Notes under the pieces: generated by a model | What the model was told of the DNA's origin: nothing | Database searches by the model: none | The model's input: the letters and a program-made list of their open reading frames with translations, nothing else | Shown here: positions 35,085 through 55,102 of the stretch, one piece after another | Layout of the letters: every line of letters starts with the position of its first letter | Position numbering within the stretch: the stretch's first letter is position 1 | Source: an uncultured Planctomycetales bacterium | GTDB lineage: Bacteria; Omnitrophota; Gorgyraeia; Zapsychrales; Aceulaceae | Length of the DNA: 64,000 nucleotides | Assembly: GCA_964648665.1 (NCBI GenBank) | Contig: CAZYOA010000005.1 | Coordinates: forward strand, 22,822-86,821 | Direction of reading: 5' to 3' | Made by a program: the position numbers and the translations under genes

Positions 35085-35600
35085 ATGGTAGAACACGAGC
35101 TTCTTTTCTTGGGACTTCTTATGAAGGGCCCAAAGCATGGCTATGAAATTAAACGTCAGTTAGAAGAAGAGCTGTTTCCTTTCTTAGGGCTAAAGGTTAA
35201 ATCTATTTATTATCCTTTAAAGAAAATGGAAAAGCTTGGTCTTTTAAAGAAAGACATTGGCAGAGAAGGCAAGTTTCCAGAAAAGTTTATTTATAAGATT
35301 ACAGATAAAGGAAAGAAGATTTTTGATCATCTCTTGACCGAGAACTTTCTTTCTATTGAAAGGCCATATTTCAATGTTGATCTTTCACTGTATTTCCTGC
35401 CTTATGTGGATAAAAAAATCGCAAAAAGACGCCTGCGTGCTCGCGTTATTTTCTTAAAACGTATCAAGAGAGATCTTGAATCCATCAAGGAAAATCTTAA
35501 AAGAACCTCAAAACACCTTATCATCATTCTTAATCATGACCTTGATCTCGTCGAGGCTGAAATTAAATCTATCTCAAGCCTGATTGAAACAATTCAATAA
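35085..35600 (+). CDS. PadR-family transcriptional regulator (copy 1)
   Basis: N-terminal winged HTH typical of PadR (LLFLGLLMKGPKHGYEIKRQLEE...YYPLKKMEKLGLL...YKITDKGKKIF) plus a C-terminal helical dimerisation region. About 88% identical (hand count) to 43914-44432. Confidence 0.8.
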   Translation: MVEHELLFLGLLMKGPKHGYEIKRQLEEELFPFLGLKVKSIYYPLKKMEKLGLLKKDIGREGKFPEKFIYKITDKGKKIFDHLLTENFLSIERPYFNVDLSLYFLPYVDKKIAKRRLRARVIFLKRIKRDLESIKENLKRTSKHLIIILNHDLDLVEAEIKSISSLIETIQ

Positions 35601-35658
35601 AATCTTTTTTTTATCATAAATTCTTTTATTTTAAGAGTTATGATCTTTTGTTTTAAGC

Positions 35659-35716
35659 AAGCGCTTCCTCGAAAGTCGCGTTTTGGGGATGTTTTTTAAT
35701 ATTTAGATGCTATATT
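35659..35716 (+). promoter_or_regulatory. Degenerate palindrome (AAGCGCTT) plus extended -10 (TGcTATATT) upstream of giant gene 1
   Basis: Homologous to the 44511-44574 and 61123-61186 regions. The palindrome centre is about 48 nt upstream of the -10 hexamer in all three. Confidence 0.4.
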
Positions 35717-35831: not shown

Positions 35832-38800
35832 ATGTTTTTCTTGCCACGGAGAAAAATACTGTACAGTGCTAAAAAAGGTGTCTCGGTTTTCGTTGCCATA
35901 TGTTTTTTATCGATGACACTTCTTCCTAGTATTGCTCTCGCCCAAAGTGTTGCAGGTCTACCTATCCCAGGAACATTGCTCGCCACGACATCAAGCTTTA
36001 CGCCTTTGATGCTTCGCGGTATTCAAATTAATCCAGAAAATCCTTTTGAATTTAACTTCCTTTTAGATACAGGGTCAGATTCTCTTAATCAAGATGAAAT
36101 CAAAAGTCAATCTGAAACAATTGCAAAATATTTCTTATCCACTCTAACGATTCCAGAAGAAGATCTTTGGGTAAACCTTTCTCCTCATGAAGAAAATCGC
36201 ATTGCTCCTGACGCTTTATCTCAAACAGATATGGGCCGAGATCTCCTAGCACAAGATTATATCTTAAAGCAACTGACGGCTTCTTTAATCCATCCAGATG
36301 ACGAAACAGGTAAAGTGTTCTGGAAAAAGGTTTATAAGAAAGCCTATGAAGAATATGGCACTACCCAGATTCCAGTCGATACCTTTAATAAGGTATGGAT
36401 TGTTCCTAATAAAGCAACAATCTACCAAGAAGGCAACAGAGCCTTTGTAGCTGAAAGTTATATGAAGGTTATGCTAGAGACTGATTATCTCGCGCTTGAA
36501 AAGAGTGCAGAGTCCCAAGGGGCGAGGGATGCAGAATCTAAAGCCGATAATGCACTAGCTTCCCAAGTTGTTCGAGAAGTCTTGATCCCCTTATTAGAAA
36601 AGGAAGTCAACGAAGGCAAACTATTCTCTAAGCTTCGACAAATGTACCATTCTATGATTTTAGCCACCTGGTATAAGCAAAATCTAAAAAGTTCTATTAT
36701 TAATAAAATTTATTCTGATCAAAGCAAAGTGAAAGGTGTTGAAACCCCTGACCCAGAGATTGTGAATAAAATCTATGATCAGTATTTAGAAGCCTTTGAT
36801 AAAGGGGTTTGTGATTTAATAAAGAAAGAAAAGGATCCGGTTACCGATAAGGTGTTCTTTAGAAAGTATTTCTCAGGCGGCTTTGATGCCAAGGCGATTT
36901 CATCCAATATTAAGGTTAAAAGTTCTCCAAGATTTAGGAGTGTTGTGGTTAGAAATATTGTTGGTATGGTTTTTTCGGCGGTGTTTATGCTTATGAGCCC
37001 TACACATTTATTGGCTCAATCTCAAGCCAGTCCAGCCTCTGAAACTTCAGTAAATCTGGATGATGATATTTTTAAGATGAATGACTACTTTTTTTATGAG
37101 ACTGAGGCTGAAATAATATATGGTCGAGGTAGCGGACAAGGTCTTGCGGATCCAGAACACCTTGAAGATGTTGCTGTTGATAGTGATGGCAATATTTGGC
37201 TTGTTGACTATGAAGGTGATCAGGTCATTGTGATTGATAAAAAGACAGGAAAACCAAAGATTGTTGATCGAAAATTCGAATCGCCCGCTGGCCTTAGAAT
37301 TGATGAGGAAGACAACATTTGGATTGCGGAATTTTATGATGGCAAGATTGTGATGCTTGATAGAAAAACAGGGGAGTGGATTTTCAAGGGAACATTTAAT
37401 CATCCTAGCGACATTGAATTTGATGATAAGGGCAATGTTTGGGTTTCGGAGTGGGGTTCTGAATATATTTGGATGATGAATAAAGAAACAGGAAAAAAAG
37501 AGATTGTCGAAGAAGGTTTTGAGATGGTTAATGATATTGCCTTTGATCAGGATGGTAATCTATGGATTACTGATTTTAAGAAAGGCTGTGTTTTTATGAG
37601 AGATAAAACAGGAAAGCTGGATGTTGTTAAGCGAAACTTAAACAGTCCTAGAGATGTTGCAATTGACAATGAAGGTAATGTTTGGATTGCTGAAGAAGAA
37701 GCTGATCGTATTTGGGTACGACTTAAAAACACAGGCGAGTGGAAAATTTTTCCAATGGAATTTAGCCGTCCTTATGGAATTGCTTTTGATAATCAAGGAA
37801 ATCTTTTAGTTTCAGAAACCAGCGGTAAGTGTCTTAATCGTATAAAGAAGACTTTTTTGCCTTTGCCTAACATTAGCATTCAAGGAATAAACATACCTAA
37901 AAGCAATCTCGATTTTTCTGCAGCAACAATTACGAGTACTATCGAGTTAGATGACATTGTTCGCGTTGTTGGTCAACCAACAAATATTAAGAATACGATT
38001 TATTTTGATTATCACTCAGGCTACGAAAGAGGAGAAAACGGAAGAACAAAAGTCAGAGCTGTTGGCCGATGGAATCGTGATTATCCTGATCGACCAGAAC
38101 GTAATCCTCGCGGGTGGCTTAAGAAAGTGACTCCTAAGGATTATGTTGTTGATGAAAATGGAGAAATTCAGATTACGAAGCCGTTATTTAAAGAGATTGA
38201 GATTAGAGAGCTCATGAAAGAAGATTTCGCTTTTATTCAAGATCGCTACGATCAAGCATTTAATGTTATGGACAGCGATGTCTTAACGGCTAAAAATCAC
38301 CTGAATCAAGCTCGAGTACGTCTCGAGCAGCTTATTAAAAAGTTATCAGCAGAAACATCTATGGATAATCGCGAGCTAGTGTTTGAGTCATTAGATAAGA
38401 CAGTGGATGTTATCCGCGGTGATTTGGAAGCTGTTGAGAATTTTGAAAAACACGGACAAATTATTGTTAGTGTTCATGAAAAAATTAATAATTTTAATAT
38501 TATTTTAAAAGAAGGTACTAGTAGTGAAGCAAGAAAAAGGGAGGCAGAAAAATCTTTAAATGGCCTACTTAACTCCTTAACACAAAATCAAGATATTCTT
38601 AAAGACTATGGCTATGATACAAAACATGCTATTGATTTTTTGAATAAAATTGCAAAAGGATTTGATATTAATAATTTTACATCAACATCTTCTAAGAGTG
38701 ATGCGCAATCATTGAATCAATTTGAGCAATCAACCAACTCTGAGATTCTAAAATCTATTGCCGAGGGTGATGTTTTTGGCATTGAAGATAAAAATGGTTT

Positions 38801-41800
38801 TACAGCTTTTGAAACCAATACGCCTGAACAGAAACATCTTGCGCGAGAAGTTATCACGAATGCCTCAAATACTCATCAGGATTTATCGGTCTGGGTCAAG
38901 AATCCAGAATCTAAAAAAGGTGAGCTTATTGCTATGAATCCGAATTCCACAAGAACAGCTGCATCTTCTTCCATAGCGTCATCCGCTTTAAAAGCTTTAA
39001 AAAAGACAGCTAAAATTGCTGTGATGATTTCTGTTTTTGCCTTATCTTTTTTGGTTCAGAGCTGCGCCCAAGAATCTAATAAACAGGTTCAAAAAAATGT
39101 TCATGATCTTTTAGACTTGCCAGGAACGGAAACCCCATCTGTTAATACCTCGATACAGGAACTTGCTAAAGACTATCTTTGGAAGGCTCCTGCAATAGAT
39201 TCATTGGACGCCTTTGTTGCGCGTTGGCCTTATAGCCTAGATGGTCGTAACGCTCAAGAGAAGGTCGAAGTTTTATCTCATTATATTAAGAATGAATTGG
39301 GCGTTTTGTCTTTAGGCAACGACGATTCTGATTTGACACAAAAAGGTGAAGATTTTCAGCCCAGGAAAGGTCGAGACTTAACATATGTTGCACAAAGTAA
39401 AGCCGCTGTATGCACAGGCTTTGCTCGATTAGGGTTTTTCTTAGGTAATTATTTAGGTATTCCTAATCAAACATTTCGAGCTTCTGATCAAAAGCAGGGT
39501 GATTTTGATCATGAAATTAATATCGTTTTTTCTGACGGGAAGGCAATTATATGGGATATGTCGACAGGTGTTGAGCAAAGCATTGTTAGCAAGCCTTTTG
39601 ATTTTGATGAATATTATCAAAAAATTGAGCTAGGCGATGGAGAATTCGAATATGTTCTTCGCCCTGGAAAAACATTTGATTTCTTAATTGAAAAGCAGTA
39701 TGAATATCCTGGAAATTTAAGTGATATTTATACTCGGATAGCTCCATGGTTTGCTCATGATGTTAATCAATTAACAGATTTGATTAAGAAATATGAAAAT
39801 GAAATTCAGGAGTTATATTCTAACGCGATTGACGTGTATAATTCAGGAGATTATGAATCCGCACAAAAACTTTTTTCTGAAATTCATCTTCAAGCCGAAA
39901 CTCTTTTTACTGTTAATTTCAAGAATTCGGCTGTCAGAGAAGTTATCACAGACTCTGATGAATCGGTAAAAAAGTATTATATTTTATTGTCGGAATCAAA
40001 ATCTTTAGATTTAGCCATTGGTGATTATCTCAAAGGAAATCGAGATCAGGCAAGTATGCCGCCGATAGAAAAGAATCAATTTGGAGTTTGGTATTTTTCA
40101 GAACAAACCAGAAATATTCAAAACTCTATGCAAAGAAGCGCCGAGTTGTTTGAGCAACAGAAATTTGAACAGGCCAAAGAAGAAATAGAGAATTATCAGA
40201 AGATTGCTCTAAAATTAAAAACTGATATTTCCGATAGAGGGCTTTCAAGAATTTTAGTTGATCCGGCTCCTGTCCTTCAGGAGATTGATGGCATCATTGG
40301 TGCAAGTTATCAGAATATTAAAGCTTGTGAAATGGAAATCGAGAGGCAAAAAGACAGAACGTATTATTGGGATGGAAAATCTGATGCAAAAGATAATAAG
40401 AATGCAAAGGTTTCAAGTAGTTCGCTAACGGTAGCTTTAAAAGGTTTTAAAATAGCTATGGCTACATCTATGGCAGCTGGATTTTTATCATTTTTACCAC
40501 TTCAATTCTTTGGGCAAGATAAAAATAATGAGAATCTTGTTGTTGATGGAAACTTTAATGTTTCTTGGCCTTCTGCTTTTGGAACGCCAGACTTTAAACG
40601 TGGGAAAATGTTGATGATTTCGTATTACGTTGGAGGAAAGGGGAAAAAGGGTGAAGGTGTTTATAGTAAAATAAAAGCCAATCAAGGCGTTTATCATATT
40701 AGCTTTGATTATATTGTTAAGCCAGCGCATAGAACATATTCTGAGCGTAATAATATTAATATTTGTCTTTTTAATAAAGTTTCACATCAACCAAATGGTC
40801 GTGTGCAAGAAGTTGTTCCTAAATATCTAACGAAAGAGGGAGGCGCGTATATAATTTATAGTGAAGAAAATATTGAAGCAGATGGAAAGTCGCGACATTT
40901 TGAGGGATATTTCTGTATACCTGCGAATCAATCGTATCAATATGTGGGTATTTATCCGACTGTTGATAAAACTCCAGGAGTAAGCAAGTCGATTGTAGGT
41001 ACAGTTTTTGATGATTTGACTATTACTCCTTTTTCAATTGATAAGATTCCTGAACATAAAATAGATATACCTAAAAGTGATCTTGATTTTTCTGCAGCAA
41101 CAATTACGAGTACTATCGAGCTAGACGATATTGCTCGCGTTGTTGGCAAGCCAACAGCTATCAAAAATACGATTTATTTTGATTATCACTCAGGTCATGA
41201 AAGAGGAGAAGATGGAAGGACAAAGGTTAGAGCTGTTGGTGTATGGAACCGTGACTATCCTGATCGACCAGAGAGGACTCCTCGTGGGTGGCTTAAGAAA
41301 GTAACTCCTAAGGATTATGTTGTTGATGAAAATGGAGAGATTCATATTACAAAGCCGTTATTTAATGAAATTAATATCAAAGAGCTCATGAAAGAAGATT
41401 TTGCTTTTATTCAAGATCAGTATGATCAAGCATTTGATATTTTAAATAAGAATGTTGTAGCATCTAAGAATCATTTAAATCAAGCGCAGATACGTCTGGA
41501 TCAAGTTGTTAGAAAGTTATTAGCAGAAAAAGATGTTGATAATATTGAGGCAGTGTTTGAGGCGCTAGATAAAATATCTGATGTTATTAGTGGCGATTTA
41601 GAAGCCATTGAGAATTTTCGAATACAAGGGGAGACTCTTGCCGATATGCAAATGAAGGTCAATGAAGTTAATGCTGCTTTAGAAGAAGTCACTGCTGCTT
41701 TAGAATCTGATATTGATACTGATTCTCAAAAAAGTCGAGCAGCAAAGGCTTTTAATGATGCCATTGCTGTTATATCTGAAAATAGCTTATTATTAGAGAA

Positions 41801-42455
41801 GTTAGATTATGATGCTCAGAAAGCTGTTGTTGTTATAGAGAATATTTTACGAAGATTAGGTATTGAGAATTTTTCATCAAAACCTTCTAACAATGATGCA
41901 CAATCAATGAATCAATTTGAGCAATCACCTGATTTTGAGATTCTAGAATCTATTGCTCAGGGTGAGGTTTTTGGCATTGAAGGCAATAGCGGTTTTACAT
42001 CGCTTGAAACTAAAACCCTTGAACAGCAACATCTTGCACGAGAAGTTATTTTGAATGCCTCAAATATTCATCAGGATTTATCGGTCTGGGTAGATAATCC
42101 TGAGAAAAACACGCTTGAGCTTATTTCTATTAATTCGAATGCGTATGAGAGCGGGAAGACGCGTACAACCGCCTCATCAAATGTTGGTGGAATTGATCTT
42201 AATGCTCAATATTTGGATCTTAAAACTCAAGGCATAGATATGGATTTTGAACTGCCTTTAGAATGGCAAGGAGTGGATCTTAGTAATGTTCCTGGCCTTA
42301 TTCCTGTATTTATTCAAATTACACCTGTTATCAACTTTCCTGCTTTTGTTGCAGGAGAAGAAGACATTGAAAATAACAATGCTGCATTAGCATTTCATCA
42401 ACCTTTAATTGAACAAAAGAAGGATTTTATAGTAAAAAAAGAATTTAATATTTAA
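35832..42455 (+). CDS. Giant family protein 1 (2207 aa), composed of several distinct modules
   Basis: Uninterrupted 6.6-kb ORF with an AGAAAGG RBS. In order it contains the family N-module, a six-bladed propeller and repeat unit R1. These are followed by a lipobox-like TM, a transglutaminase-like core, another TM, a beta-rich region, repeat unit R2 and the family C-module. N- and C-termini are shared with the 44726 and 54534 genes. Confidence 0.9.
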   Translation: MFFLPRRKILYSAKKGVSVFVAICFLSMTLLPSIALAQSVAGLPIPGTLLATTSSFTPLMLRGIQINPENPFEFNFLLDTGSDSLNQDEIKSQSETIAKYFLSTLTIPEEDLWVNLSPHEENRIAPDALSQTDMGRDLLAQDYILKQLTASLIHPDDETGKVFWKKVYKKAYEEYGTTQIPVDTFNKVWIVPNKATIYQEGNRAFVAESYMKVMLETDYLALEKSAESQGARDAESKADNALASQVVREVLIPLLEKEVNEGKLFSKLRQMYHSMILATWYKQNLKSSIINKIYSDQSKVKGVETPDPEIVNKIYDQYLEAFDKGVCDLIKKEKDPVTDKVFFRKYFSGGFDAKAISSNIKVKSSPRFRSVVVRNIVGMVFSAVFMLMSPTHLLAQSQASPASETSVNLDDDIFKMNDYFFYETEAEIIYGRGSGQGLADPEHLEDVAVDSDGNIWLVDYEGDQVIVIDKKTGKPKIVDRKFESPAGLRIDEEDNIWIAEFYDGKIVMLDRKTGEWIFKGTFNHPSDIEFDDKGNVWVSEWGSEYIWMMNKETGKKEIVEEGFEMVNDIAFDQDGNLWITDFKKGCVFMRDKTGKLDVVKRNLNSPRDVAIDNEGNVWIAEEEADRIWVRLKNTGEWKIFPMEFSRPYGIAFDNQGNLLVSETSGKCLNRIKKTFLPLPNISIQGINIPKSNLDFSAATITSTIELDDIVRVVGQPTNIKNTIYFDYHSGYERGENGRTKVRAVGRWNRDYPDRPERNPRGWLKKVTPKDYVVDENGEIQITKPLFKEIEIRELMKEDFAFIQDRYDQAFNVMDSDVLTAKNHLNQARVRLEQLIKKLSAETSMDNRELVFESLDKTVDVIRGDLEAVENFEKHGQIIVSVHEKINNFNIILKEGTSSEARKREAEKSLNGLLNSLTQNQDILKDYGYDTKHAIDFLNKIAKGFDINNFTSTSSKSDAQSLNQFEQSTNSEILKSIAEGDVFGIEDKNGFTAFETNTPEQKHLAREVITNASNTHQDLSVWVKNPESKKGELIAMNPNSTRTAASSSIASSALKALKKTAKIAVMISVFALSFLVQSCAQESNKQVQKNVHDLLDLPGTETPSVNTSIQELAKDYLWKAPAIDSLDAFVARWPYSLDGRNAQEKVEVLSHYIKNELGVLSLGNDDSDLTQKGEDFQPRKGRDLTYVAQSKAAVCTGFARLGFFLGNYLGIPNQTFRASDQKQGDFDHEINIVFSDGKAIIWDMSTGVEQSIVSKPFDFDEYYQKIELGDGEFEYVLRPGKTFDFLIEKQYEYPGNLSDIYTRIAPWFAHDVNQLTDLIKKYENEIQELYSNAIDVYNSGDYESAQKLFSEIHLQAETLFTVNFKNSAVREVITDSDESVKKYYILLSESKSLDLAIGDYLKGNRDQASMPPIEKNQFGVWYFSEQTRNIQNSMQRSAELFEQQKFEQAKEEIENYQKIALKLKTDISDRGLSRILVDPAPVLQEIDGIIGASYQNIKACEMEIERQKDRTYYWDGKSDAKDNKNAKVSSSSLTVALKGFKIAMATSMAAGFLSFLPLQFFGQDKNNENLVVDGNFNVSWPSAFGTPDFKRGKMLMISYYVGGKGKKGEGVYSKIKANQGVYHISFDYIVKPAHRTYSERNNINICLFNKVSHQPNGRVQEVVPKYLTKEGGAYIIYSEENIEADGKSRHFEGYFCIPANQSYQYVGIYPTVDKTPGVSKSIVGTVFDDLTITPFSIDKIPEHKIDIPKSDLDFSAATITSTIELDDIARVVGKPTAIKNTIYFDYHSGHERGEDGRTKVRAVGVWNRDYPDRPERTPRGWLKKVTPKDYVVDENGEIHITKPLFNEINIKELMKEDFAFIQDQYDQAFDILNKNVVASKNHLNQAQIRLDQVVRKLLAEKDVDNIEAVFEALDKISDVISGDLEAIENFRIQGETLADMQMKVNEVNAALEEVTAALESDIDTDSQKSRAAKAFNDAIAVISENSLLLEKLDYDAQKAVVVIENILRRLGIENFSSKPSNNDAQSMNQFEQSPDFEILESIAQGEVFGIEGNSGFTSLETKTLEQQHLAREVILNASNIHQDLSVWVDNPEKNTLELISINSNAYESGKTRTTASSNVGGIDLNAQYLDLKTQGIDMDFELPLEWQGVDLSNVPGLIPVFIQITPVINFPAFVAGEEDIENNNAALAFHQPLIEQKKDFIVKKEFNI
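37893..38960 (+). repeat. Intragenic repeat unit R1 (about 1.06 kb) of giant gene 1
   Basis: IPKSNLDFSAATITSTIELDD...RAVGRWNRDYPDRPERNPRGWLKKVTPKDYVVDENGEI...GDVFGIEDKNGF...HQDLSVWVKNPE is repeated 3174 nt (1058 codons) downstream. Confidence 0.9.
41067..42180 (+). repeat. Intragenic repeat unit R2 of giant gene 1
   Basis: IPKSDLDFSAATITSTIELDD...RAVGVWNRDYPDRPERTPRGWLKKVTPKDYVVDENGEI...GEVFGIEGNSGF...HQDLSVWVDNPE. The first roughly 130 codons are near-identical to R1; the rest is more diverged. Confidence 0.9.
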
Positions 42456-43912: not shown

Positions 43913-43913
43913 T

Positions 43914-44432
43914 ATGATTGAGCATGAATTGCTTTTTTTAGGACTCTTAATGGAGGGCCCAAAGCATGGCTATGAAATTAAACGTCAGCTAGAAGAAGAA
44001 TTGTTCCCTTTTTTAGGCTTAAAGGTCAAATCTATTTATTATCCTTTAAGAAAGATGGAAAAGCTTGGCCTCGTTGAAAAAGATGTTGACCGCGAAGGAA
44101 AATTTCCTGAGAAGTTTGTTTATAAGATTACCTCAAAAGGTAAAAAGATCTTTGATCATCTTTTGACTGAGAATTTTCTTTCCATTGAGCGACCGTATTT
44201 TAATGTCGATCTCTCGTTATATTTCTTGCCTTATGTGGATCAAAAAATTGCTAAGAGGCGTCTGCGCGCGCGGGTTATTTTTCTTAAGCGTATCAAGCGC
44301 GATCTTGAATCCATAAAGAAGAATATTAAAAAAGCTTCCAAACACCATATTATTATTTTAAACCACGACCTTGACCTTGTTGAGGCTGAAATTAAGTCTA
44401 TCGAGCAACTCATCGAAACATTTACTTCATAA
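43914..44432 (+). CDS. PadR-family transcriptional regulator (copy 2)
   Basis: About 88% identical to copy 1, with the same winged-HTH motifs. Confidence 0.8.
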   Translation: MIEHELLFLGLLMEGPKHGYEIKRQLEEELFPFLGLKVKSIYYPLRKMEKLGLVEKDVDREGKFPEKFVYKITSKGKKIFDHLLTENFLSIERPYFNVDLSLYFLPYVDQKIAKRRLRARVIFLKRIKRDLESIKKNIKKASKHHIIILNHDLDLVEAEIKSIEQLIETFTS

Positions 44433-44510
44433 TATCCTTTAAATCTTAAATTTCTTATCTTCCTTGGAATTAATTATTTTTTATTTTTCATTATTTTCCG
44501 TTTCTCTCGT

Positions 44511-44574
44511 CTGAGAAAGCGCTTTCTTAGAATACCTGGTTTTCTGTTGTTTTGGTGATTTATCATGCTATACT
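44511..44574 (+). promoter_or_regulatory. Near-perfect 20-bp palindrome CTGAGAAAGC|GCTTTCTTAG plus extended -10 (TGcTATACT) upstream of giant gene 2
   Basis: The 14-bp core AGAAAGCGCTTTCT (44514-44527) is a perfect inverted repeat. The 24-nt string tctcgtctgagaaagcgctttctt is identical at 61117-61140. TATACT lies at 44569-44574. Confidence 0.5.
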
Positions 44575-44725
44575 TTATATAATTCACAAGCAGGCATATT
44601 TATAGAAATTTGGCCCTTCCAAAGAATTAGCTCTCTGTCGGGGTAGGTAGCACAATTTTTTTAAATCGAATGGGAGTGCACAAGTAGATGCACTAACAAA
44701 TCTTTATCATAAGAAAGGTACACTC

Positions 44726-47700
44726 ATGTTTCTCTTACCACGGGGAAAAACACTGTATAATATTAAAAAGTTTGTTTCATTTGTTGTTTTTGTATGTTTT
44801 TTATGGATGACACTTTTTCCAAGCGCTGTACTCGCTCAAAGCGTTGCAGGTCTTCCGATTCCAGGAACACTGCTAGCATCCACACCCAGTTTTACTCCTT
44901 TAATGCTTCGTGGTATTCAAATTAACCCTAAAAATCCTTTTGAATTTAACTTTCTTCTAGACACAGGAACAAGACACCTTTCTCAAGATGAAATCAAAAC
45001 CCAATCTGAAACCATCGCGAAATATTTTTTATCAACAGTCACGATTCCAGAGGAAGATCTATGGGTCAATCTTTCTCCTTATGAGAAAGACCGAATCGTT
45101 CCTGAGGCTTTATCTCAAACGGATATGGGCCGTGATCTTTTAGCTCAGGATTATATATTAAAGCAGCTAACTGCTTCTTTAATTCATCCAGATGATGAGA
45201 CAGGCAAAGTGTTTTGGGAAAAAGTTTACAAAAAAGCTTATCAAGAATATGGAACAACGAACATTCCAGTTAATACTTTTAATAAGGTGTGGATTGTCCC
45301 TGATAAAGCCACAGTTTACCAAGAAGGCAATAGGGCCTTTGTAGCTGAGAGCTATATGAAGGTGATGGTGGAGGAAGACTTCTTGGCTAGACAAGTGAAT
45401 AGCGAAAAGTCGTTAGTGAATAGTAAGAAACAGCAGATGCAGAATGTCGATGGTCATTTACAAGATGCTATTGCTCAAGACATTGTCCGTGAAGTTCTAA
45501 TTCCCTTATTAGAAAAGGAAGTCAATGAGGGCAAGCTTTTCTCTCAACTTCGACAAATGTATCATTCCATGATCTTAGCTACCTGGTATAAGCAGAATCT
45601 CAAAGGTTCCATTATTAATAAAATCTATGCGGATCAAAGCAAGGTTAAGGGGGTTGAAACTCCTGATCCAAAGACTGTTAATAAGATCTACGACCAATAC
45701 CTAGAAGCCTTTGAAAAAGGGGTTTGCGATATCGTTAAAGTTGAGTATGATCCTAATACTCAAAAGAATGTACCAAGAAAATATTTTTCAGGTGGATTTG
45801 CTGCGAGTGCAATCTTATCTAGATTTAAGGTTAGCCGCTCTTCAAGAAGATTTCGTAAAACAGTTGTTAATTCGGTTGTTGGCTTTGTTTTTATGGCTAT
45901 ATTTGCGCTGTCTTCGGCCGATAGTCTTCAAGCGCAGATAGTGGATCGATCCTCACAAAATCCGATTGAAAAAACATCAACCAAGCCCAACGAGGTGAAA
46001 CCGAGTCCTTTTGGCAAACCGGTGCCTGCGTTGCCAGAAATAACTCAGAGTGAAATTGATCAAATTATGGGTCGTTTTAAGTTTGAATATCCTAAAAAAT
46101 TGAGCTCGTCAGATCAGCCGCCAGAATTTCCTGTTAAGGTAACTCCAAACTTTGGATCAATTCCTTTGCCTAAGATGATACCGCTTAAGCTAGGTGCGAC
46201 TGAGAAATTAATATTAATCGACACCTTAAGCATACCGCGCATTAATGTTTCTGATTCTACAAAAGAGATTAATATCGACCCGCTTATTAAGAAATTTGGG
46301 CTTCATTGGTATTCAGTTGAGGAAAAACCAAAAGAAGGCGTAATTGTAAAAGAGAAGGTTTCAGAAATTACAGAAAAAATAAACGATAAGTATATTTTTG
46401 GATCAAAATCGGGCAATAAAATAGCGGATATTTTTATCCGCGTGCATACTTCTAAGGGTGTGTTTAATTTGCCAGGTATAGAAAATCCTAAGATGAAGCT
46501 TCTTCCGACTTCACTAGGGACAGACGAAGAATGGTTTAAAGCGCAGATTACCAAACAAGAAGGGGTAGACAATCTAACTTTTAAGAAATTTTCATTACTT
46601 AGAAACACAAATTTTATAGTAGAGAAAGACACAAACTTTTTAGATCTTCATATCGATGACTTAGCCAAATCTTATGATAAGGATGTTAAGGCTATATTAG
46701 TTGTTGCGTTAGATAATTTTAATAACGCATTTAATATAGACAGTCTTTTATATACCTTTGAGCTACTCGATCAAATACCTCAGGTGGACATACCTGGACC
46801 ATCAGAAGAAAATATTGAGAGACTGTTAGAGCTTCGGGATTCATTTTCTGAAACAGGGGAGTTAGAAGTAGGTACTGTTACGATGAAATTTGAAAAATAT
46901 GATCTTTCTCAAAAGATGCCTTCACCGATTGATGTTTCTACTGAAAGGGGAGAAGGATTTATTTCCGCAAAAGGAGCTTTTTCAGAGCTATCTTTTTTGC
47001 CAAAGAGTTCTTTGTTGAATGATCTTTCTGGACCATTAGGTGATTTTTCGCAAAAGAAGAAGAATGTGGATCAACTAAAAACTTTGCCTTCAATTACTTC
47101 TCAATTTATCCCTCAAAAGGATATTCTTAAGGAAGATTTGCCTGACATCCCGTTGTTATCTAATTTGTCTTCGCCTGAGAATCCTAATATAGGCAATGAA
47201 AAGGAGTTATTACTTCCCATGCTAATTCCAGATTTAGTTCTTCCAGAGCTAAATATTGATGAGATCAAGGATTTTCCTGAGGGAGATTTTGAATCTCAAA
47301 AACCATTGATTCCAGACTTTGGTGAGCAAAAAGAAATTTATTTTCATATTGTTGATTCGGTTTCGGAAAATGCTTTTTTTCAAAAAGCCCCTGAGAACGA
47401 AAATTTGTTACCGGAAGATACAGAGTTTATTCGTACGCACTATACAGAAGCTGTAAAGAACATGAAGAATAAGCAACATGAATTGTCGAAACAAAATCTT
47501 GTTGAGGCAAAAAATAGCATCTTTGATTTACTTGAACGTTTGAAAAATGCTGATGCCAGCGATTCGCAAGCATCAAAAGATTGGCTAAGCAATGCTTTAT
47601 TAGCACTTACCGAAGTATCGCTAAAAAATGAAGAATTTCTTATTTTAGAGGAACTGAAGGTGGCTTTTGACACTCTAGGTGCTGGCAATGTTGTGGAGGC

Positions 47701-50700
47701 TCTGCAACATTACGAAAATGCAAAGCAAAAGCTAGATGATGTAATCAAGTTCCTTAAAGATAATCCCATTGATTTAGAGGGTGCCGATCAGCAACGCCAA
47801 CGTTTTGAAACAGTTCAAAGCGATGTCCAGAAGAAAATAGATGCATTAGGCAAATATCAAGGTGACTCTAAGACACGCGTGCAGCAAAACCAAGAATTTG
47901 AACGTATAAAAGAAAAATGGTCTCAGGAAGTTTTTTCTTTAGATTCTTTGCAGAAGCAATATTCAGATTCATTGAAGAATTCTCAACCAGAAATATATGA
48001 AGAAAGTTTGAAAAGAATCCTATCGAAACTTGATTCGCTCACAACTCTTGTTCAGCGCAATAAAAAAAGAATTGCAAATGAAAAGACGACACAAGATTCT
48101 TTATCGAAACTCTCAACCGCTGCTGAGAATATAATTCAAAAAATTCATAACTATAAAAAAGCTTTAAAATTTTATGATGAAGGACAGAAAAAAGTTAATT
48201 TATTAAATGCCCAGCTACTCAAAGACATAGAAGAAATAAGATCAAAGTATTCTGTAGCATTTTCTTCTGCTCAGCAAAGAGAGTATCAAGGCGCTTCCGA
48301 CAGTATTTCCGCGGCTAAGGAGATTCGAGCGTTGACTTCTGCCGCTTTAGACTCTGCGGAAAAATTTGGCCTAACTATTCCAAATTCAACACTAGATTCT
48401 CTCGAAGAAATTAGGGATATTTTGCAAAGAAAATACGAAGAAGCCAGATCCCTTCAAAATCAAAAGACTAACCATGATACACAACTTTCTGATTTTGATT
48501 CTTCTGTTAAGAAGCGATTTAATCGTTGCAAATACTCGTATAAGCTTGCTGCTGAAGATATTGAACTGGCGATTGAAAAAGATACTGCAAATTATGTAAA
48601 ACATTTTAAGAATGCTAAGCAGAACATTGTCGATGCTCAAGATTCGATAGCCAGCCTTAGAGCAGATCTAGTTCAATTTATCGATATGGATGGAACTAAG
48701 GATATTCTTAAGGTTGCAGATGAACTTCTTGACCTGGTGGATAATGCTGCCATCAGCATTCCATTGTTGGAAAATAAATATAAGCATTATCGAAATGTTC
48801 AGATAGAAATTGCACATTTGAACGAAATGATTGCGACTCGTTCTGCGGTTGTAAAAGCTGCAGATAGTTTGGCTAATCAGAAGATTAATCAAAACAAGGA
48901 AATATATATAAAGGAAGACTATTCGGTGGCTGAGGCTGCTATTCAAGAGGCCAAGAATTATTCTGATTCTATCGTTGCTAGTTTGTCAGCGGCTAAATAT
49001 GCCAGCATCCCTAATGCTATGATGACGTTTTATAAAGATCGTCAAACATATTTTAGTGAATTGCTTGAAGTTTTTCAGGATTATCGAATAAAAAAAGACG
49101 AAGAACAGGAAGTTGTGGACGCATATAATTTTTTGTTGGAAAGTGACAAAGCGAAAATTGTAGATTTTAACAAATTAGCTTTTGCAGAGCTTGATAAAGC
49201 GAGTGAAGGCAAGTCGGTCAATTATTCTCAGGTTTTTAAGCTTTTTTCTACTGCCGAAAAGAATTTTATTAATTTGATAGAACGAACAAAGCAACTAAAA
49301 GAACAAAGTGATCGCCCAGACGTTATTCAGAAGATTATTGAATCTCAAGAAAAAACTTTGAGTGATTTTAGAAAAATGCAACAGGTTATCAAAGGTGAGG
49401 AAGGAACAGATCTCTCAGACGTTAATAAAAGAATTCAGAATGCTAAAGTAAATTTTATAAAAGGCTGCGAGTTTAGTCTTAATAATGGTATTAAAAATCT
49501 CAAAACTGGAAAACGCACGAGGGCTGATGATTCTTTTAAATTAATAGATCAACAAATAGTAGAGCTTAAAAGATTTGCTAAAGAAACAAGATCTACGGAA
49601 ATTTTTGACTCATTAATAAAGGTGTCAGATCAAAAAAGCATTCAATTAGCTAAGATTCTTAAAGATATAGAGGATGAGCGCAACGCGTTTGTATATGCGC
49701 CTAGAACTGTTTTGCTTAGGAAGCTAGGGCCTGTGATATATGGAGGTCGTTATAAACGAGGTGGGATCAAAGCAAATAAAAGCTCTGCAGATAAGTATAT
49801 TTCTTATGGCGCTTGGAAAGCCGCTTTGCAAGAGCTTGGTAATGTTAGGAAGCTTATAGAAAGGGCAAATATAATTTTAGAGGAGGATCAATATAAAGAT
49901 GTTGAGGATATCGATACGTTTAAAAATATTTTTTCTTCTGTTGAAAATATCAGAAATAATTTATCTTCAAAATTAGAAGAATTTGATCAATTCTATTCTG
50001 TCTCATTTAGCCCAAAAATATCAAAAATTCGTGAACATTTCAAAAAGGAGAAAGAATTTCGTTATAATGGACAATTTTCTGAATCACAAAAAGAACTTAT
50101 CGCAGCAAAAGACATGATTCAATCTTTGATTGATGAATCATCTAAAAACCAGAAGGTAAAATTATCCGAGGCCTTTAAATCATTATTATTTCTTGATTTG
50201 CAAGCCATCGATGCTCTTTACAAGAAAATAGAAGATTTAGAAACGCTTGATGAAGAAATGAAGGTGCTGCAGGATTCGACACAGAATGCAGGAGATGGTT
50301 ATCGGAATTTAATCCTTATTTTAAACAGAGATCAAGATGTTAGACGTGCGATGATGAATTTTAATATTTTAGTTTCGCGTCTCGAAAAAGTAAACCAACA
50401 GATTAAAAGTGGCAAGATGAGCTTTTCAAAGCCGGTTGAATATAATTTTGAGATGTCGTTCAAGAATCTCAAAGCCATGCGTTCTCATCTTTTTGAAACA
50501 GATTTGGTTTATCATATTTCTTCTGATTTTAATGAAAATGTTGTTTTGCGCAATACAGAATTAGATCTATTGCAAGAGAAAATTTTAAATTATGACAACA
50601 TTGTAACTGGTTTGCGTAAACGTTATCAAGGCGTCCAGGATGCTGCTTGGAATTTTAAAGAACGCGTTAAAGAAAATTCTTCGGAGAAACAAGAACCCGC

Positions 50701-53700
50701 TGATTGGCTTGAAAGCAGATTGGCATTTTTAAAGCGTACATTAGAGCCAAATGCTTATGCGAATGTTGTCAAAAGATTACTTCGAAGGACAGATGTTGTT
50801 GAAACTTTTAATGATGTTCCGGAAACTAATTCTGAATTGAACAACGAGTATGAATTATACATAGAAAATCTTATGGGTTACAAATGGCGTGCTGCTGGTT
50901 TATCTAAAAGTGATTTTGCACAAAAAACGAGTCAAGAAGAGAAGCAGGGTGGGGTCAGCGCGGATACGTTAGTCAACAATCTTCTTGAGCAGGTCCGTGG
51001 GCGCAATACGGCTAATCGTACAATAATTGGTCAATATTTTAGTGAGCTTAAACGACTCAATTCTCAATTTTCAATGGCTGTTTCAGAGCAAGAAGAAACC
51101 TGGTTTTGGAATTTTGTAAATACGCAATTTAACTCGATTCCTTCTAAGCTGTTTTCTGTAAAAAAAGAGAATTTTAATATCGATGAAATACTTTACCGCC
51201 ATGGTTATTTTGGTTTGGGAACAGTTATTCCTTCTGGGATGAATAAAATACAGCGCCAAAAAATAGATGTTTTTGATATTATAGAAGACACTGCCTGGGT
51301 AAAGAACGGGCTTGATAAGCCTTATTTCCTTAATAGACGCAGCATAGAAGTAGGAGAATATCTTGACGAAATGGAAAAGGACATGGTGACTATGGGTTCT
51401 CGTCTGCTCGAACTCGTAAAGAAAGAAGGATATTCGCCAACCATCAGAAGGGATAGCTCTTATTTTACTACAGAGAGATATCGCAACTTAACTGCTATTC
51501 CTATTGATCCTGAAAGAGGTTTTCGTAATCCTTTTCATCGGATGAAATATGATGCCGATTCTATTCTTCCTGCTCTCCCAAATGTGCAAAAAATACGTGA
51601 TCAGAGGCTCCAGGCCTTAGAAAAAACTTTGCAAGACAATATTCAAACCGTTAAAAAACTTCGCGAGGCGAGGAAAGATTTTTATTTGAAAAACAAAGAA
51701 ATGCAGGAAAAGCCTACCGAGAAAGAGATAGAAGATCTTTCGGTTAAAGATCCTGCCAAGAAGAGCGCTAATCAGATGCTTGATGAAATTTCAGAAAAAT
51801 TACAAAATTTTGAAAAGGAATTACAGCGATCATTTAAAACGGCCCAGAAGACTGTTAAAAATAATGACCTTATTATCGGTCGAGATGACTTTAGAAATCT
51901 TATCAAGAAAGGAGAGGCAATGATTTCTATCTTAAATAACTGCTCAGGCATTGACAACCTTGATGAAATTATTGACTCTATCAGGAAGTTTCAGAATGCT
52001 GCGAGAGAACAATTGATTTTTTGCGATGAATATGAGCAATCTCAATCTTCTAATAAAGCACTATCAGATTTTAAGAATAATTTTAAGGCTAAATTAAATG
52101 CGGCTCAACAAGAATTTCGCTCGATTATTGCCAATAGTTCAACAGAAGTTCCTGATTTTACTATTTCTGATTTTGGTGAAATTAAAAAAGGCTTAGAGTT
52201 TTACCGCGCGGCTATTTCAAAGAGTCAATCGATTACAAATAAAGACGCGGTTATCAAGCCTTTAGATAAAATTATCTCCGATTTAGACACAATTATCAAT
52301 ACTCTTCCGCAATTTTCAAATTATTGGGATGAGTATCATTTCAAGAGCAATATAAAGGACAATTTTTCATTTCATGCAAAAATGAAACTGTCGGAATCAA
52401 AATCTTTTTATATCAGAGCTTCAGATGAATTGCGTGTCGCTAAGCAAGAAAAAAGAAATCCTGATTCAAAAAAAGTCGAGGAAAATTTAAAGATGTCTGT
52501 TTCTATTCTTGATTCTTTATTTGCTCAAAGCAAGAATTTGCAAACACAAGATTCAGCCAGCATTGTTAGTTTCTTTAGTGAACTTGAAAAGAATTTTACA
52601 GACCTTATTAACGTGGTCATGACTCTTGATGCGTCAATTAGTGCAAGGAACTCTGCACAGAAAGAGATTGCTCTTACAAACAAAGTGATTGACTTTGTTA
52701 ACCTTAACGAAAAAGAATTGAAACGTATTGCTCCCTTGCTTGAGGGAAACAAGGACGCTGAGGCAATAGCTAGTCTTGAAAAAGTTAAAGAGAAATTATC
52801 AGATTTAGCTGGATTCTATGCCGAGAATGAAACAAGCAATGACAGTAAGTTTATTGTTGCTTTAACGGATACAATAAGAAAAATCGATTCTTTATTGAAA
52901 AAAGCGATTCATGAAAAAGTTAAGTCAGAGCTGTTTGCTGTTCCGGAGAACAATATTGCGAACATCAAAGTCTTACTTAAGACTTTGGAAGAGAATTTCG
53001 ATGTTTCATATCGCAGTATTTTGAACTCCATAAAAGAAAATCATCTTGACCTAGCAAAAGACGAAATCTCAAGATTTCAGCAATATATTGAGGCTTCTTT
53101 TTCTTCTATGCAGAAAGATACAGATACTGATTTTCTTAATCGGATCACACAAGCGTTTGAAACTGTTATGAATGATAGTGTTCCGATTTCTGAAGAGCAA
53201 AAAACGATATTGGAAGAATCGTATCAAGAGATTGCGAAGTTTAATGCATCAATTATTCAGACTCCTGTCTTGTACGGAAATGTTCTCGATTCAATAAACA
53301 GTAATGTTTCTTTAGCATCTGTTACAAAAACTTGTAGCAAAGATTATAAGAAAACAAAGAAAGCCATTCAATCTTTTATTGCAAACTTGACAAATATCGA
53401 GAGAATTCTCAACGACATAAAACCATCGCTCGATGAGCTTAAGAGTGCAGTAAATTCTGTGAATGCAATTTCCGTAAAAGAGACAAAAACAAAGATTCAA
53501 AAAGCTGTTGATATTTTAGATGTAAACAAAGATATACTAAGAAATCATATCCCAGACATTGAAAATATTATAAAAGATCTTAAGAATTTTTCTTCTGGAT
53601 TTGAAGAGTTTAAAGCTTCTCTGTACATCGAAAAATCAACCAACCAGATCAACTCTATTCGCGAATCCTTTGCCGAGATAGACAATCCTTATCATTCGCA

Positions 53701-54514
53701 GGTAACTTATGCCAATATGAAATATAAGCTCGCGGTTGCCTTTATGGGTAATCCAAATGTGCAAAAATTTATTGATGAGGCCACAAGACGATTAGACGAT
53801 CTGCCCTATCTGGAAAGAGAGCCAGAATTGTTAGGAGAGAATTCTGAAAAGATTATTCAAAGAATACTAAAAAAAGGGGGTTTAGAATCAATTTATCAGG
53901 CCTTAGCGGATATCCCTGATGGAGGAAATAATAATATTTCTATTGATCCATTTATTGCTGATTCTATCAGTCGAGGAGAGGTTTTTGGTTTTAAAGGAAA
54001 AGATGGAAAGTTTATCGAATTTATAGCCAAGACTGACCTTGAGAAAGAACGCGTAAGACAGATTGTATTAGCAGGATTAAGACAGCATGATGATCAATTA
54101 TTTGTTTTGTTAGGAAATCCGGGTAGTGCCAAAAGCTATTCTATATCTGGAAAGGCTGTGCCCTCTGATTCGAACTTAGCTTCCTCAAGCGTAACTTCAG
54201 ATGTGGCGGCGGCAGAGCAAGGAAGCCTCAACAAAAGCGATGTCGGTGGTATTGATCTTAATGCTCAATATCTTGATCTTAAAACAGAGGGCATAGATAT
54301 GGATTTTGAGCTGCCTTTAGAATGGCAAGGCATAGATCTCAATAATGTTCCGGGACTTGTTCCTGTGTTTATTCAAATCATGCCTGTGATGAATTTTCCT
54401 GCATTTGTTGCAGGAGAAGAAGACATTGAAAATGATAATGCTTCATTGGCATTCCATCAACCTTTAATTGAACAAAAACAGGATTTCATGTTTGAAAAAG
54501 AATTTGATATCTAA
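44726..54514 (+). CDS. Giant family protein 2 (3262 aa)
   Basis: Uninterrupted 9.8-kb ORF. Contains the family N-module, a TM segment, a Pro-rich stretch, about 2700 aa of K/E/Q/N/S-rich predicted helical sequence, and the family C-module (GGIDLNAQYLDLKTEGIDMDFELPLEWQG...). Confidence 0.9.
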   Translation: MFLLPRGKTLYNIKKFVSFVVFVCFLWMTLFPSAVLAQSVAGLPIPGTLLASTPSFTPLMLRGIQINPKNPFEFNFLLDTGTRHLSQDEIKTQSETIAKYFLSTVTIPEEDLWVNLSPYEKDRIVPEALSQTDMGRDLLAQDYILKQLTASLIHPDDETGKVFWEKVYKKAYQEYGTTNIPVNTFNKVWIVPDKATVYQEGNRAFVAESYMKVMVEEDFLARQVNSEKSLVNSKKQQMQNVDGHLQDAIAQDIVREVLIPLLEKEVNEGKLFSQLRQMYHSMILATWYKQNLKGSIINKIYADQSKVKGVETPDPKTVNKIYDQYLEAFEKGVCDIVKVEYDPNTQKNVPRKYFSGGFAASAILSRFKVSRSSRRFRKTVVNSVVGFVFMAIFALSSADSLQAQIVDRSSQNPIEKTSTKPNEVKPSPFGKPVPALPEITQSEIDQIMGRFKFEYPKKLSSSDQPPEFPVKVTPNFGSIPLPKMIPLKLGATEKLILIDTLSIPRINVSDSTKEINIDPLIKKFGLHWYSVEEKPKEGVIVKEKVSEITEKINDKYIFGSKSGNKIADIFIRVHTSKGVFNLPGIENPKMKLLPTSLGTDEEWFKAQITKQEGVDNLTFKKFSLLRNTNFIVEKDTNFLDLHIDDLAKSYDKDVKAILVVALDNFNNAFNIDSLLYTFELLDQIPQVDIPGPSEENIERLLELRDSFSETGELEVGTVTMKFEKYDLSQKMPSPIDVSTERGEGFISAKGAFSELSFLPKSSLLNDLSGPLGDFSQKKKNVDQLKTLPSITSQFIPQKDILKEDLPDIPLLSNLSSPENPNIGNEKELLLPMLIPDLVLPELNIDEIKDFPEGDFESQKPLIPDFGEQKEIYFHIVDSVSENAFFQKAPENENLLPEDTEFIRTHYTEAVKNMKNKQHELSKQNLVEAKNSIFDLLERLKNADASDSQASKDWLSNALLALTEVSLKNEEFLILEELKVAFDTLGAGNVVEALQHYENAKQKLDDVIKFLKDNPIDLEGADQQRQRFETVQSDVQKKIDALGKYQGDSKTRVQQNQEFERIKEKWSQEVFSLDSLQKQYSDSLKNSQPEIYEESLKRILSKLDSLTTLVQRNKKRIANEKTTQDSLSKLSTAAENIIQKIHNYKKALKFYDEGQKKVNLLNAQLLKDIEEIRSKYSVAFSSAQQREYQGASDSISAAKEIRALTSAALDSAEKFGLTIPNSTLDSLEEIRDILQRKYEEARSLQNQKTNHDTQLSDFDSSVKKRFNRCKYSYKLAAEDIELAIEKDTANYVKHFKNAKQNIVDAQDSIASLRADLVQFIDMDGTKDILKVADELLDLVDNAAISIPLLENKYKHYRNVQIEIAHLNEMIATRSAVVKAADSLANQKINQNKEIYIKEDYSVAEAAIQEAKNYSDSIVASLSAAKYASIPNAMMTFYKDRQTYFSELLEVFQDYRIKKDEEQEVVDAYNFLLESDKAKIVDFNKLAFAELDKASEGKSVNYSQVFKLFSTAEKNFINLIERTKQLKEQSDRPDVIQKIIESQEKTLSDFRKMQQVIKGEEGTDLSDVNKRIQNAKVNFIKGCEFSLNNGIKNLKTGKRTRADDSFKLIDQQIVELKRFAKETRSTEIFDSLIKVSDQKSIQLAKILKDIEDERNAFVYAPRTVLLRKLGPVIYGGRYKRGGIKANKSSADKYISYGAWKAALQELGNVRKLIERANIILEEDQYKDVEDIDTFKNIFSSVENIRNNLSSKLEEFDQFYSVSFSPKISKIREHFKKEKEFRYNGQFSESQKELIAAKDMIQSLIDESSKNQKVKLSEAFKSLLFLDLQAIDALYKKIEDLETLDEEMKVLQDSTQNAGDGYRNLILILNRDQDVRRAMMNFNILVSRLEKVNQQIKSGKMSFSKPVEYNFEMSFKNLKAMRSHLFETDLVYHISSDFNENVVLRNTELDLLQEKILNYDNIVTGLRKRYQGVQDAAWNFKERVKENSSEKQEPADWLESRLAFLKRTLEPNAYANVVKRLLRRTDVVETFNDVPETNSELNNEYELYIENLMGYKWRAAGLSKSDFAQKTSQEEKQGGVSADTLVNNLLEQVRGRNTANRTIIGQYFSELKRLNSQFSMAVSEQEETWFWNFVNTQFNSIPSKLFSVKKENFNIDEILYRHGYFGLGTVIPSGMNKIQRQKIDVFDIIEDTAWVKNGLDKPYFLNRRSIEVGEYLDEMEKDMVTMGSRLLELVKKEGYSPTIRRDSSYFTTERYRNLTAIPIDPERGFRNPFHRMKYDADSILPALPNVQKIRDQRLQALEKTLQDNIQTVKKLREARKDFYLKNKEMQEKPTEKEIEDLSVKDPAKKSANQMLDEISEKLQNFEKELQRSFKTAQKTVKNNDLIIGRDDFRNLIKKGEAMISILNNCSGIDNLDEIIDSIRKFQNAAREQLIFCDEYEQSQSSNKALSDFKNNFKAKLNAAQQEFRSIIANSSTEVPDFTISDFGEIKKGLEFYRAAISKSQSITNKDAVIKPLDKIISDLDTIINTLPQFSNYWDEYHFKSNIKDNFSFHAKMKLSESKSFYIRASDELRVAKQEKRNPDSKKVEENLKMSVSILDSLFAQSKNLQTQDSASIVSFFSELEKNFTDLINVVMTLDASISARNSAQKEIALTNKVIDFVNLNEKELKRIAPLLEGNKDAEAIASLEKVKEKLSDLAGFYAENETSNDSKFIVALTDTIRKIDSLLKKAIHEKVKSELFAVPENNIANIKVLLKTLEENFDVSYRSILNSIKENHLDLAKDEISRFQQYIEASFSSMQKDTDTDFLNRITQAFETVMNDSVPISEEQKTILEESYQEIAKFNASIIQTPVLYGNVLDSINSNVSLASVTKTCSKDYKKTKKAIQSFIANLTNIERILNDIKPSLDELKSAVNSVNAISVKETKTKIQKAVDILDVNKDILRNHIPDIENIIKDLKNFSSGFEEFKASLYIEKSTNQINSIRESFAEIDNPYHSQVTYANMKYKLAVAFMGNPNVQKFIDEATRRLDDLPYLEREPELLGENSEKIIQRILKKGGLESIYQALADIPDGGNNNISIDPFIADSISRGEVFGFKGKDGKFIEFIAKTDLEKERVRQIVLAGLRQHDDQLFVLLGNPGSAKSYSISGKAVPSDSNLASSSVTSDVAAAEQGSLNKSDVGGIDLNAQYLDLKTEGIDMDFELPLEWQGIDLNNVPGLVPVFIQIMPVMNFPAFVAGEEDIENDNASLAFHQPLIEQKQDFMFEKEFDI

Positions 54515-54533: not shown

Positions 54534-55079
54534 ATGTTTCTCTTGCCACGGGGAAAAACATCGAGAATTTCTAGGAAAACAATATCTATTATTATAACGG
54601 TTTGTTTCTTTGCAACAACCGTTGTCCCTTCTCAAGCCATGGCCCAAGGACTGTTAGGGCTTCCTGCGGCTGGCACTATGGTGTCTTTAAGCCCAGTATT
54701 CACACCTACCATTCTTCGTGGAATAAGAGTCTATCCTAACAATTCTCTTAAATTCGACTTTATAGTCGATTCTGGTGATACTGGGCTTAAAGGCATTGCA
54801 TTAAAGAACGAATCTGAACGTCTCATAAAATACTTCCTAGCAGTTTTAACTATTCCTGAAGACAACCTATGGGTTAACTTATCTCCCCATGAAGAAGATA
54901 GAATCATTCCTGATTCTTTAGCTCTTACAGATATGGGCACTGACATGTTGGCCCAAGACTATCTCTTAAAACAAATCACTGCATCTCTAATCTATCCAGA
55001 AGATGAGCTAGGTAAGCAGTTCTGGCAAAAGATCTACAAAAAGCCTATGAAGAATATGGCACTACCAATATTCCAGTAG
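54534..55079 (+). CDS. Giant family protein 3, N-terminal fragment (frameshifted; pseudogene, sequencing error or slippage site)
   Basis: Family N-module up to ...FWQKIYKK, then out-of-frame residues and a stop. Paralogs read KKAYEEYGTT at this point. Confidence 0.7.
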   Translation: MFLLPRGKTSRISRKTISIIITVCFFATTVVPSQAMAQGLLGLPAAGTMVSLSPVFTPTILRGIRVYPNNSLKFDFIVDSGDTGLKGIALKNESERLIKYFLAVLTIPEDNLWVNLSPHEEDRIIPDSLALTDMGTDMLAQDYLLKQITASLIYPEDELGKQFWQKIYKKPMKNMALPIFQ

Positions 55080-55102
55080 ATACCTTTAATAAAGTCTGGA
55101 TT

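Follow-up and report, generated by a model that had tools for sequence, protein, structure and literature searches.

A 16-bp dyad conserved upstream of Omnitrophota giant genes is a candidate operator, probably of a regulator other than the neighboring PadR

LacI-family operators are even palindromes of 16 to 22 nt, and 1,173 of 1,303 LacI-family motifs are even palindromes with a central CG (PMC4052901). The high-affinity consensus of the cre sites is TGAAAGCGCTTTCA, and CcpA, which reads these sites, activates or represses transcription according to where the site lies (PMC3463425). For IolQ of Bacillus subtilis, two footprinted sites imply the ideal palindrome AGAAAGCGCTTTCT (PMC5504672). 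The canonical PadR operator is built differently and reads ATGT-N8-10-ACAT, as described for both PadR subfamilies (PMC3506622). Here we analyze a dyad that lies upstream of giant genes in the uncultured phylum Omnitrophota. Its sequence resembles LacI-family operators and its position resembles that of class I activator sites, yet the regulator genes that adjoin it in the DNA studied here encode PadR proteins.

Giant or otherwise large surface proteins are a signature feature of Omnitrophota and are thought to serve attachment to, or predation on, other cells. Promoters and regulators of the giant genes are not mentioned in the main papers on them. The stretch analyzed here, 64 kb in its entirety and referred to as the window, is from a Candidatus Omnitrophota member closest to Ca. 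Aceula and carries four giant genes and two padR paralogs (Table 1). Features shared by the giant proteins are a signal peptide of the Sec type and two conserved regions, one N-terminal (∼350 aa) and one C-terminal (∼60 aa). Their middles are variable, with recognizable repeats in gene 1 only, and searches for domains and solved structures returned the NHL repeats of gene 1 and no PDB hit. Both PadRs match Pfam PF03551 (E about 1e-12), and they share 90% identity. From 34.2 kb on, the window contains a tandem duplication of a cassette that consists of two small open reading frames (ORFs), padR, the dyad and a giant gene (34217-42455 versus 43042-54514).

An earlier note on this DNA had described 19-nt gaps ahead of two ORFs without a dyad of their own, a chimeric ORF starting at 42475 and giant gene 3 starting at 54534. 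Both gaps are correct. Giant gene 3 spans a frameshift near 55040-55080; from 55040 onward the downstream frame is already open and shows homology to gene 2. The 181-aa ORF at 54534-55079 and the segment 55103-61048 are one giant gene, broken by this frameshift. The chimeric ORF (42475-43029) would be cotranscribed with giant gene 1, which it follows; its first ∼100 aa correspond to a giant protein (signal peptide and start of the N-terminal domain) and continue into an unrelated coiled-coil tail. We also observed that the word GCCACGG(R)GA is ∼10-fold enriched beside giant-gene starts (window 61240-61279, 35853-35862 and 44747-44756; L002:17650-17660; L005, L081, L099 and L157). Within genes 1 and 2 the word codes for LPRG. 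At gene 4 and in several other loci it is noncoding, lies ∼22 nt before the ATG and follows an in-frame TAG; it would be the decayed remnant of an ancestral start or else a conserved element of the 5' leader.

Table 1. Giant genes, padR paralogs, dyads and promoter boxes of the window (boxes are consensus calls)
Feature	Position	Strand	Remarks
Giant gene 1	35832..42455	+	2207 aa; Sec-type signal peptide, NHL repeats
Giant gene 2	44726..54514	+	3262 aa; without Pfam domain
Giant gene 3	54534..61048	+	Split by frameshift (54534-55079 + 55103-61048); without own dyad; starts 19 nt after gene 2
Giant gene 4	61277..64000	+	Continues past the window end
padR paralog 1	35085..35600	+	Pfam PF03551; adjoins dyad, probably not its binder
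padR paralog 2	43914..44432	+	Pfam PF03551; adjoins dyad, probably not its binder
Degenerate dyad AAGCAAGCGCTTCCTC, gene 1	35655..35670	.	Centre 35662/35663; matrix score 24.1
Dyad (motif B) GAGAAAGCGCTTTCTT, gene 2	44513..44528	.	Centre 44520/44521; matrix score 28.0; class I register, d = 48
Dyad GAGAAAGCGCTTTCTT, gene 4	61125..61140	.	Centre 61132/61133; matrix score 28.8
Weak -35-like TTGTTT, gene 2	44547..44552	+	16-nt spacer to -10; 3 of 6 versus TTGACA
Extended -10 TGcTATATT, gene 1	35708..35716	+	Hexamer TATATT at 35711-35716; 48 nt after dyad centre
Extended -10 TGcTATACT, gene 2	44566..44574	+	Consensus call; hexamer TATACT at 44569-44574; 48 nt after dyad centre
-10 TATACT, gene 4	61181..61186	+	Without TG extension; 48 nt after dyad centre

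The identical 24-mer tctcgtctgagaaagcgctttctt occurs at 44505-44528 and 61117-61140, and the 14-bp palindrome AGAAAGCGCTTTCT is present in exact form only at 44514-44527 and 61126-61139 of the window. Ahead of giant gene 1, a copy with two mismatches, AGCAAGCGCTTCCT (35656-35669), contains AAGCGCTT (35659-35666). All three elements had been reported in the earlier note and were found where it had placed them, and our recount of the palindrome at gene 2 again gave 9 of 10 arm pairs, or 10 of 11 if one more is counted (arms tctGagaaagc and gctttctTaga). With up to two mismatches allowed, the 14-mer has three matches in the window against 0.63 expected, and 2 of 100 shuffles reached three. The distance from the palindrome centre to the TATA(C/T)T hexamer, given previously as about 48 nt, is exactly 48 nt to the first -10 base in all three cases. 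Two of the -10 boxes had been credited with a TG extension, which we located at genes 1 and 2 and found to be missing at gene 4. The absence of any good -35 hexamer was nearly right as a description, the best hexamers (ATGTTT, TTGTTT and TTTATT) still matching TTGACA at 2 to 3 of 6 positions.

The Pfam scan bore out the presence of a padR gene directly ahead of two of the three sites. In the alignment of the three upstream regions, which the earlier note had proposed, the flanks were alignable. The window copies are thus paralogs that belong to the duplicated padR-giant gene cassette, so their recurrence inside the window is not independent evidence, and the real test is a cross-species comparison. 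At gene 1, the right edge of the dyad is overlapped by a terminator-like hairpin of 9 pairs, G-U pairs counted, that carries a T-run (35666-35689) and sits between the dyad and the -35 region; nothing comparable precedes genes 2 and 4.

For the cross-species comparison we used two sets of 80 loci. The first (L001-L080) surrounds PadR orthologs in species-representative genomes, the second homologs of the giant-protein N terminus in metagenomes. In an unbiased count of 7-mers in 93 dereplicated giant-gene upstream regions versus 5,768 background windows, the -10 box TATACTT ranked first (20-fold enriched) and CGCTTTC second (13-fold). Iterative refinement of the dyad weight matrix yielded the 16-bp dyad AAGaAAnCGnTTTCTT. 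At its centre, C is present in 100% and G in 97% of the sites, position -1 is variable (A 40%, G 42%, C 18%), and conservation is symmetric over positions -7 to -2 and +3 to +8. The dyad was found in 40 of the 93 upstream regions, which represent fewer than 40 independent events because part of the metagenome loci are orthologous (e.g., L108, L138 and L141). All 40 sites score at least 15.8, the next best scoring 7.0, and the other 53 regions are without the dyad. It occurs in both orientations (27 and 13 sites), as expected for the site of a symmetric dimer.

Counting all matches with a score of at least 14 over the 1.84 Mb of loci, we obtained 71, and the shuffled control gave 18 in all. Forty of the 71 fall within the ∼1.5% of the sequence that lies just upstream of giant-gene starts. 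Between giant gene 4 of the window and its ortholog in L002 (dyad at L002:17533-17548), the dyad and the -10 box are invariant, and the 40 nt separating them have diverged in sequence but kept their length. The dyad is also retained in loci whose giant-protein N termini are 41 to 58% identical and whose flanks cannot be aligned. Judged from this comparison, it is a phylum-wide cis-regulatory element of which the window copies are a local instance. The genes upstream of the giant genes are not conserved among 80 loci: their largest cluster comprises 7 loci and encodes a membrane protein, and no recurrent regulator family was found among these neighbors. A restriction or methylation site could be ruled out, given that the neighbors of the central CG vary and that the sites are confined to promoters.

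Two strong dyads were observed outside the giant-gene family, both in L047 (4448-4470 and 5625-5646). One of them lies upstream of a subtilisin-like gene; the other covers codons 2 to 6 (MKKAFPQ) of a gene whose product has a signal peptide, and is immediately preceded by a TTGACA-17-TATACT promoter. Since these are other genes for secreted proteins, the regulon seems to be wider than the giant genes.

Relative to the -10 box, the dyad occupies two fixed registers. At 26 sites, including all three of the window, its centre lies 47 to 49 nt (mostly 48 nt) before the first -10 base, and TAnnnT is found 14 times at an offset of 48 against a mean of 1.6 per offset. At another 12 sites the centre lies 17 to 21 nt after the first -10 base, and two further sites, in L094 and L030, have the dyad within the spacer between -35 and -10. 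With a transcription start 7 nt past the -10 box, the two registers would correspond to about -60.5 and about +6.5, positions that depend on -10 and -35 boxes called by consensus and on start sites placed from the -10 box.

The quality of the core promoter correlates with the register. Promoters with the dyad at about -60.5 (26 sites) have on average 2.6 of 6 matches to the -35 consensus and a TGn extension in 38% of cases. The corresponding values are 5.4 of 6 (with a perfect TTGACA in 8 of 12) and 92% for the 12 sites at about +6.5, and 3.5 of 6 and 41% for 17 promoters without the dyad. The number of -35 matches differs between the upstream class and the start-site class, the latter being largely one protein subfamily (MFKKxLSLxVI...), with a Mann-Whitney p of 4.5e-6, and it is also poorer in the upstream class than at promoters without the dyad (p = 0.007). 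Two registers with opposite -35 quality are what a dual regulator acting in trans would be expected to produce.

Class I activator sites, such as that of CRP at -61.5 of lac, offer a close parallel to the upstream register, sharing with it a dimer site centred ∼60 nt upstream of the start, a weak -35 box and a fixed helical register. Provided that transcription starts 7 nt after the -10 box, the 26 upstream sites keep to a constant position of about -60.5, close to -61.5 and on one face of the helix, and their core elements are poor, as the mean of 2.6 of 6 indicates. In sequence, however, the dyad is unlike CRP or FNR boxes. The proposal of the earlier note that it is a promoter-proximal site near -60 is supported, and considerably reinforced, by the conservation in 40 of 93 regions, the rigid 48-nt spacing and the poor -35 boxes.

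We consider it probable that a dimeric transcription factor other than PadR uses the dyad as its operator and would coordinate the expression of giant secreted proteins throughout Omnitrophota. The dimeric factor would bind the 16-bp dyad AAGaAAnCGnTTTCTT in trans. In the window it would sit at about -60.5, on promoters that have a TGnTATACTTTA-like -10 box and almost no -35 box, and from there it would most likely contact RNA polymerase from the upstream side and activate transcription in the manner of class I. In other genomes, where the dyad lies across the presumed start site of very strong promoters, the same factor would repress by occlusion. By its architecture, the dyad suggests a member of the LacI family, similar to CcpA or IolQ, as the candidate factor.

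The PadR proteins appear to have a palindrome of their own. In 55 of the 80 PadR-ortholog genomes, a different and perfect 20-bp palindrome, ACTAGTAAAATTTTACTAGT, is found downstream of padR, and the count rises to 64 of 80 if it is sought anywhere in the locus. It usually lies 13 to 250 nt past the padR stop codon (e.g., L047:10560-10590 and L002:16830-16885), reads TAGT-N8-ACTA, and comes 3 nt after a strong promoter, TTGACA-16-TAAAAT, so that it overlaps the start site. This promoter usually drives an acyl-CoA-ligase-like gene. The PadRs of the window, which are related to B. subtilis PadR, for which a DNA complex has been solved, possess the same helix-turn-helix and the same recognition helix, KSIYYPLKKMEKLGL, as the orthologs beside ACTAGTAAAATTTTACTAGT. 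Within the 64-kb window, no palindrome of the ACTAGTAAAATTTTACTAGT type was detected, nor did a weight matrix with a low threshold reveal one. We take ACTAGTAAAATTTTACTAGT to be the likely PadR operator. In L002 and L031, a palindrome of this type lies just after the giant gene, so that the adjacency of padR and giant gene looks like the result of an insertion, in which a giant-gene cassette separated padR from the promoter that it targets. The palindrome of L002 is directly followed by a 5'-truncated second padR copy (16930-17273).

The earlier note had assigned the dyad to the adjacent PadR paralogs, which would thereby control the giant genes. The position of padR ahead of two of the three window sites speaks for this assignment, and the same arrangement recurs in L002, L005, L031 and L087. 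Furthermore, PadRs are dimeric winged-helix regulators, and a PadR of the window type is nearly universal in the phylum and could therefore act in trans. We nevertheless regard control by PadR as quite improbable. The same recognition helix adjoins ACTAGTAAAATTTTACTAGT in 55 of 80 genomes, with the canonical PadR spacing (PMC3506622), and ACTAGTAAAATTTTACTAGT and the dyad have no similarity. What the dyad shares with the canonical operators of PadR and LmrR is dyad symmetry and promoter proximity; their half-sites, however, are of the ATGT/ACAT type and parted by an unconserved spacer of 8 to 10 nt, whereas those of the dyad abut a conserved nCGn centre with an invariant CG, exactly where PadR operators are not conserved. 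Moreover, only 1 of 80 giant-gene loci (L087), taken from metagenomes regardless of padR, has a padR within 4 kb upstream, and the palindromes after the giant genes of L002 and L031 suggest an inserted cassette. Binding of PadR to the dyad in trans is likewise unlikely.

Among the other explanations, the one that deserves most weight, though we hold it to be unlikely, is a genuine operator of a factor that only represses and that at -60 would block alpha-subunit or UP-element contacts or form a loop with a second site. Repression from -60 is indeed feasible, 14 other promoters hold the dyad in classical repressor positions (across +1 or in the spacer), and most LacI-family proteins are repressors (PMC4052901). 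On the other hand, that divergent genomes keep the 48-nt register exactly hints at a stereospecific contact with RNA polymerase, poor -35 boxes are a systematic feature of the -60 promoters alone, and within 300 nt there is no second dyad fit for looping. Far less credible is an RNA hairpin or intrinsic terminator of the padR operon, even if the dyad follows the padR stop codon by 70 to 80 nt in two cases and the hairpin with a T-run at 35666-35689 lies beside the gene 1 site. The palindrome is outside the minimum-energy fold, with folding z-scores near 0, and conservation follows the sequence itself and not the base pairing, many copies being imperfect palindromes. The dyad also occurs at giant genes without padR, its spacing being fixed to the downstream -10 box. 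The terminator scan raised no flag at the dyad, and the Rfam scan of the window returned a single tRNA and nothing at this position. An intrinsic terminator consists of a stable GC-rich hairpin and a direct U-tract, and the dyad shows neither such a structure nor a T-run after it. We attach equally little weight to a nonfunctional repeat carried along by a recent duplication of the giant-gene cassette. Such hitchhiking would fit the alignable flanks of the three window sites and the 90% identity of the padR genes, but not the retention of the dyad where giant-protein N termini are only 41 to 58% identical and the flanks unalignable, nor its invariance in orthologs whose neighboring bases diverge.

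Returning to the preferred reading, an operator of a dimeric factor acting in trans, the 16-bp dyad has the even length of LacI-family operators and, like them, a central CG with variable neighbors. The ideal palindrome of the B. subtilis IolQ/DegA operator is identical to window positions 44514-44527 and 61126-61139. IolQ is a local repressor of an inositol dehydrogenase gene. We take the identity over 14 nt as a lead rather than as proof that a protein of this family reads the dyad. The cre consensus TGAAAGCGCTTTCA differs from the window 14-mer in the two outermost bases only. With the cre/CcpA system of the Firmicutes, the dyad shares an even pseudopalindrome of 14 to 16 bp, an invariant central CG and variable flanking positions, and it may also share the rule that an upstream position goes with activation and a position at or after the start site with repression. 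The two systems differ in phylum and in targets, which are catabolic operons there and secreted giant proteins here. Unlike cre, the dyad also keeps to rigid registers (-60.5 and +6.5), and the likeness concerns the site, not a CcpA/HPr system.

A tblastn search for LacI, CcpA or CRP homologs in the 1.84 Mb of loci retrieved only the copy of the window (12381-13232), its sole LacI-family gene, whose product has no helix-turn-helix or other DNA-binding domain. The other regulators revealed by a Pfam scan of all ORFs in the window were two PadRs and one sigma factor. The sigma gene (RpoS/RpoD-like, 275 aa) and the LacI-like gene form a pair at 11554-13232, in which the stop of the former overlaps the GTG start of the latter, an effector-domain protein. 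This pair and its synteny are kept in the relatives L161 and L162 at 60% identity, and the LacI-like protein without helix-turn-helix has more than 100 orthologs of 280 to 295 aa; it may be a ligand-sensing partner of the sigma factor.

Full-length LacI-family regulators (334 to 343 aa) do occur in other Omnitrophota. Their genes are embedded in type II secretion operons, an unusual location for a LacI regulator, between gspF and the major pseudopilin gene (L165:2923-12024, L166:3077-12937 and L167:3042-12149; also L164:6001-7693). About three-quarters of local LacI regulators have a site beside their own gene. In the intergenic regions beside four full-length Omnitrophota LacI genes, no dyad with a score of at least 14 was present, and there is thus no sign of autoregulation. 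Just ahead of the full-length LacI gene of L164 lies the palindrome ACAGACGTTTAC-N6-GTAAACGTCTGT, preceded by a TATACT promoter (L164:5935-5975); the palindrome could be a hairpin or the operator of that regulator.

In a rough split based on our analysis, the factor reading the dyad could well be of the LacI type, with somewhat less than an even chance; a PadR appears improbable, and another family would account for the rest. More specifically, it is conceivable, although doubtful, that the dyad is read by the LacI regulator of the secretion operon (gspE-gspF-lacI-gspG...), acting as a CcpA-like dual switch that responds to a sugar or another metabolite and controls the giant proteins, which are secreted or adhesin-like. 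If so, expression of the secretion substrates would be tied to the secretion machinery and to a signal derived from host or prey.

As an operator of a transcription factor, the dyad is an ordinary kind of element; what is extraordinary is its occurrence in the giant-gene family of an uncultured phylum. Its assignment to PadR, which was based on adjacency, is corrected here, and a likely true PadR operator is supplied instead. The dyad defines a regulon that can be scanned for in any metagenome-assembled genome, predicts which giant genes are coregulated, and supplies probes for finding the regulator without cultivation. A phylum-wide operator with two rigid registers would thus offer a concrete handle on the regulation of giant genes.
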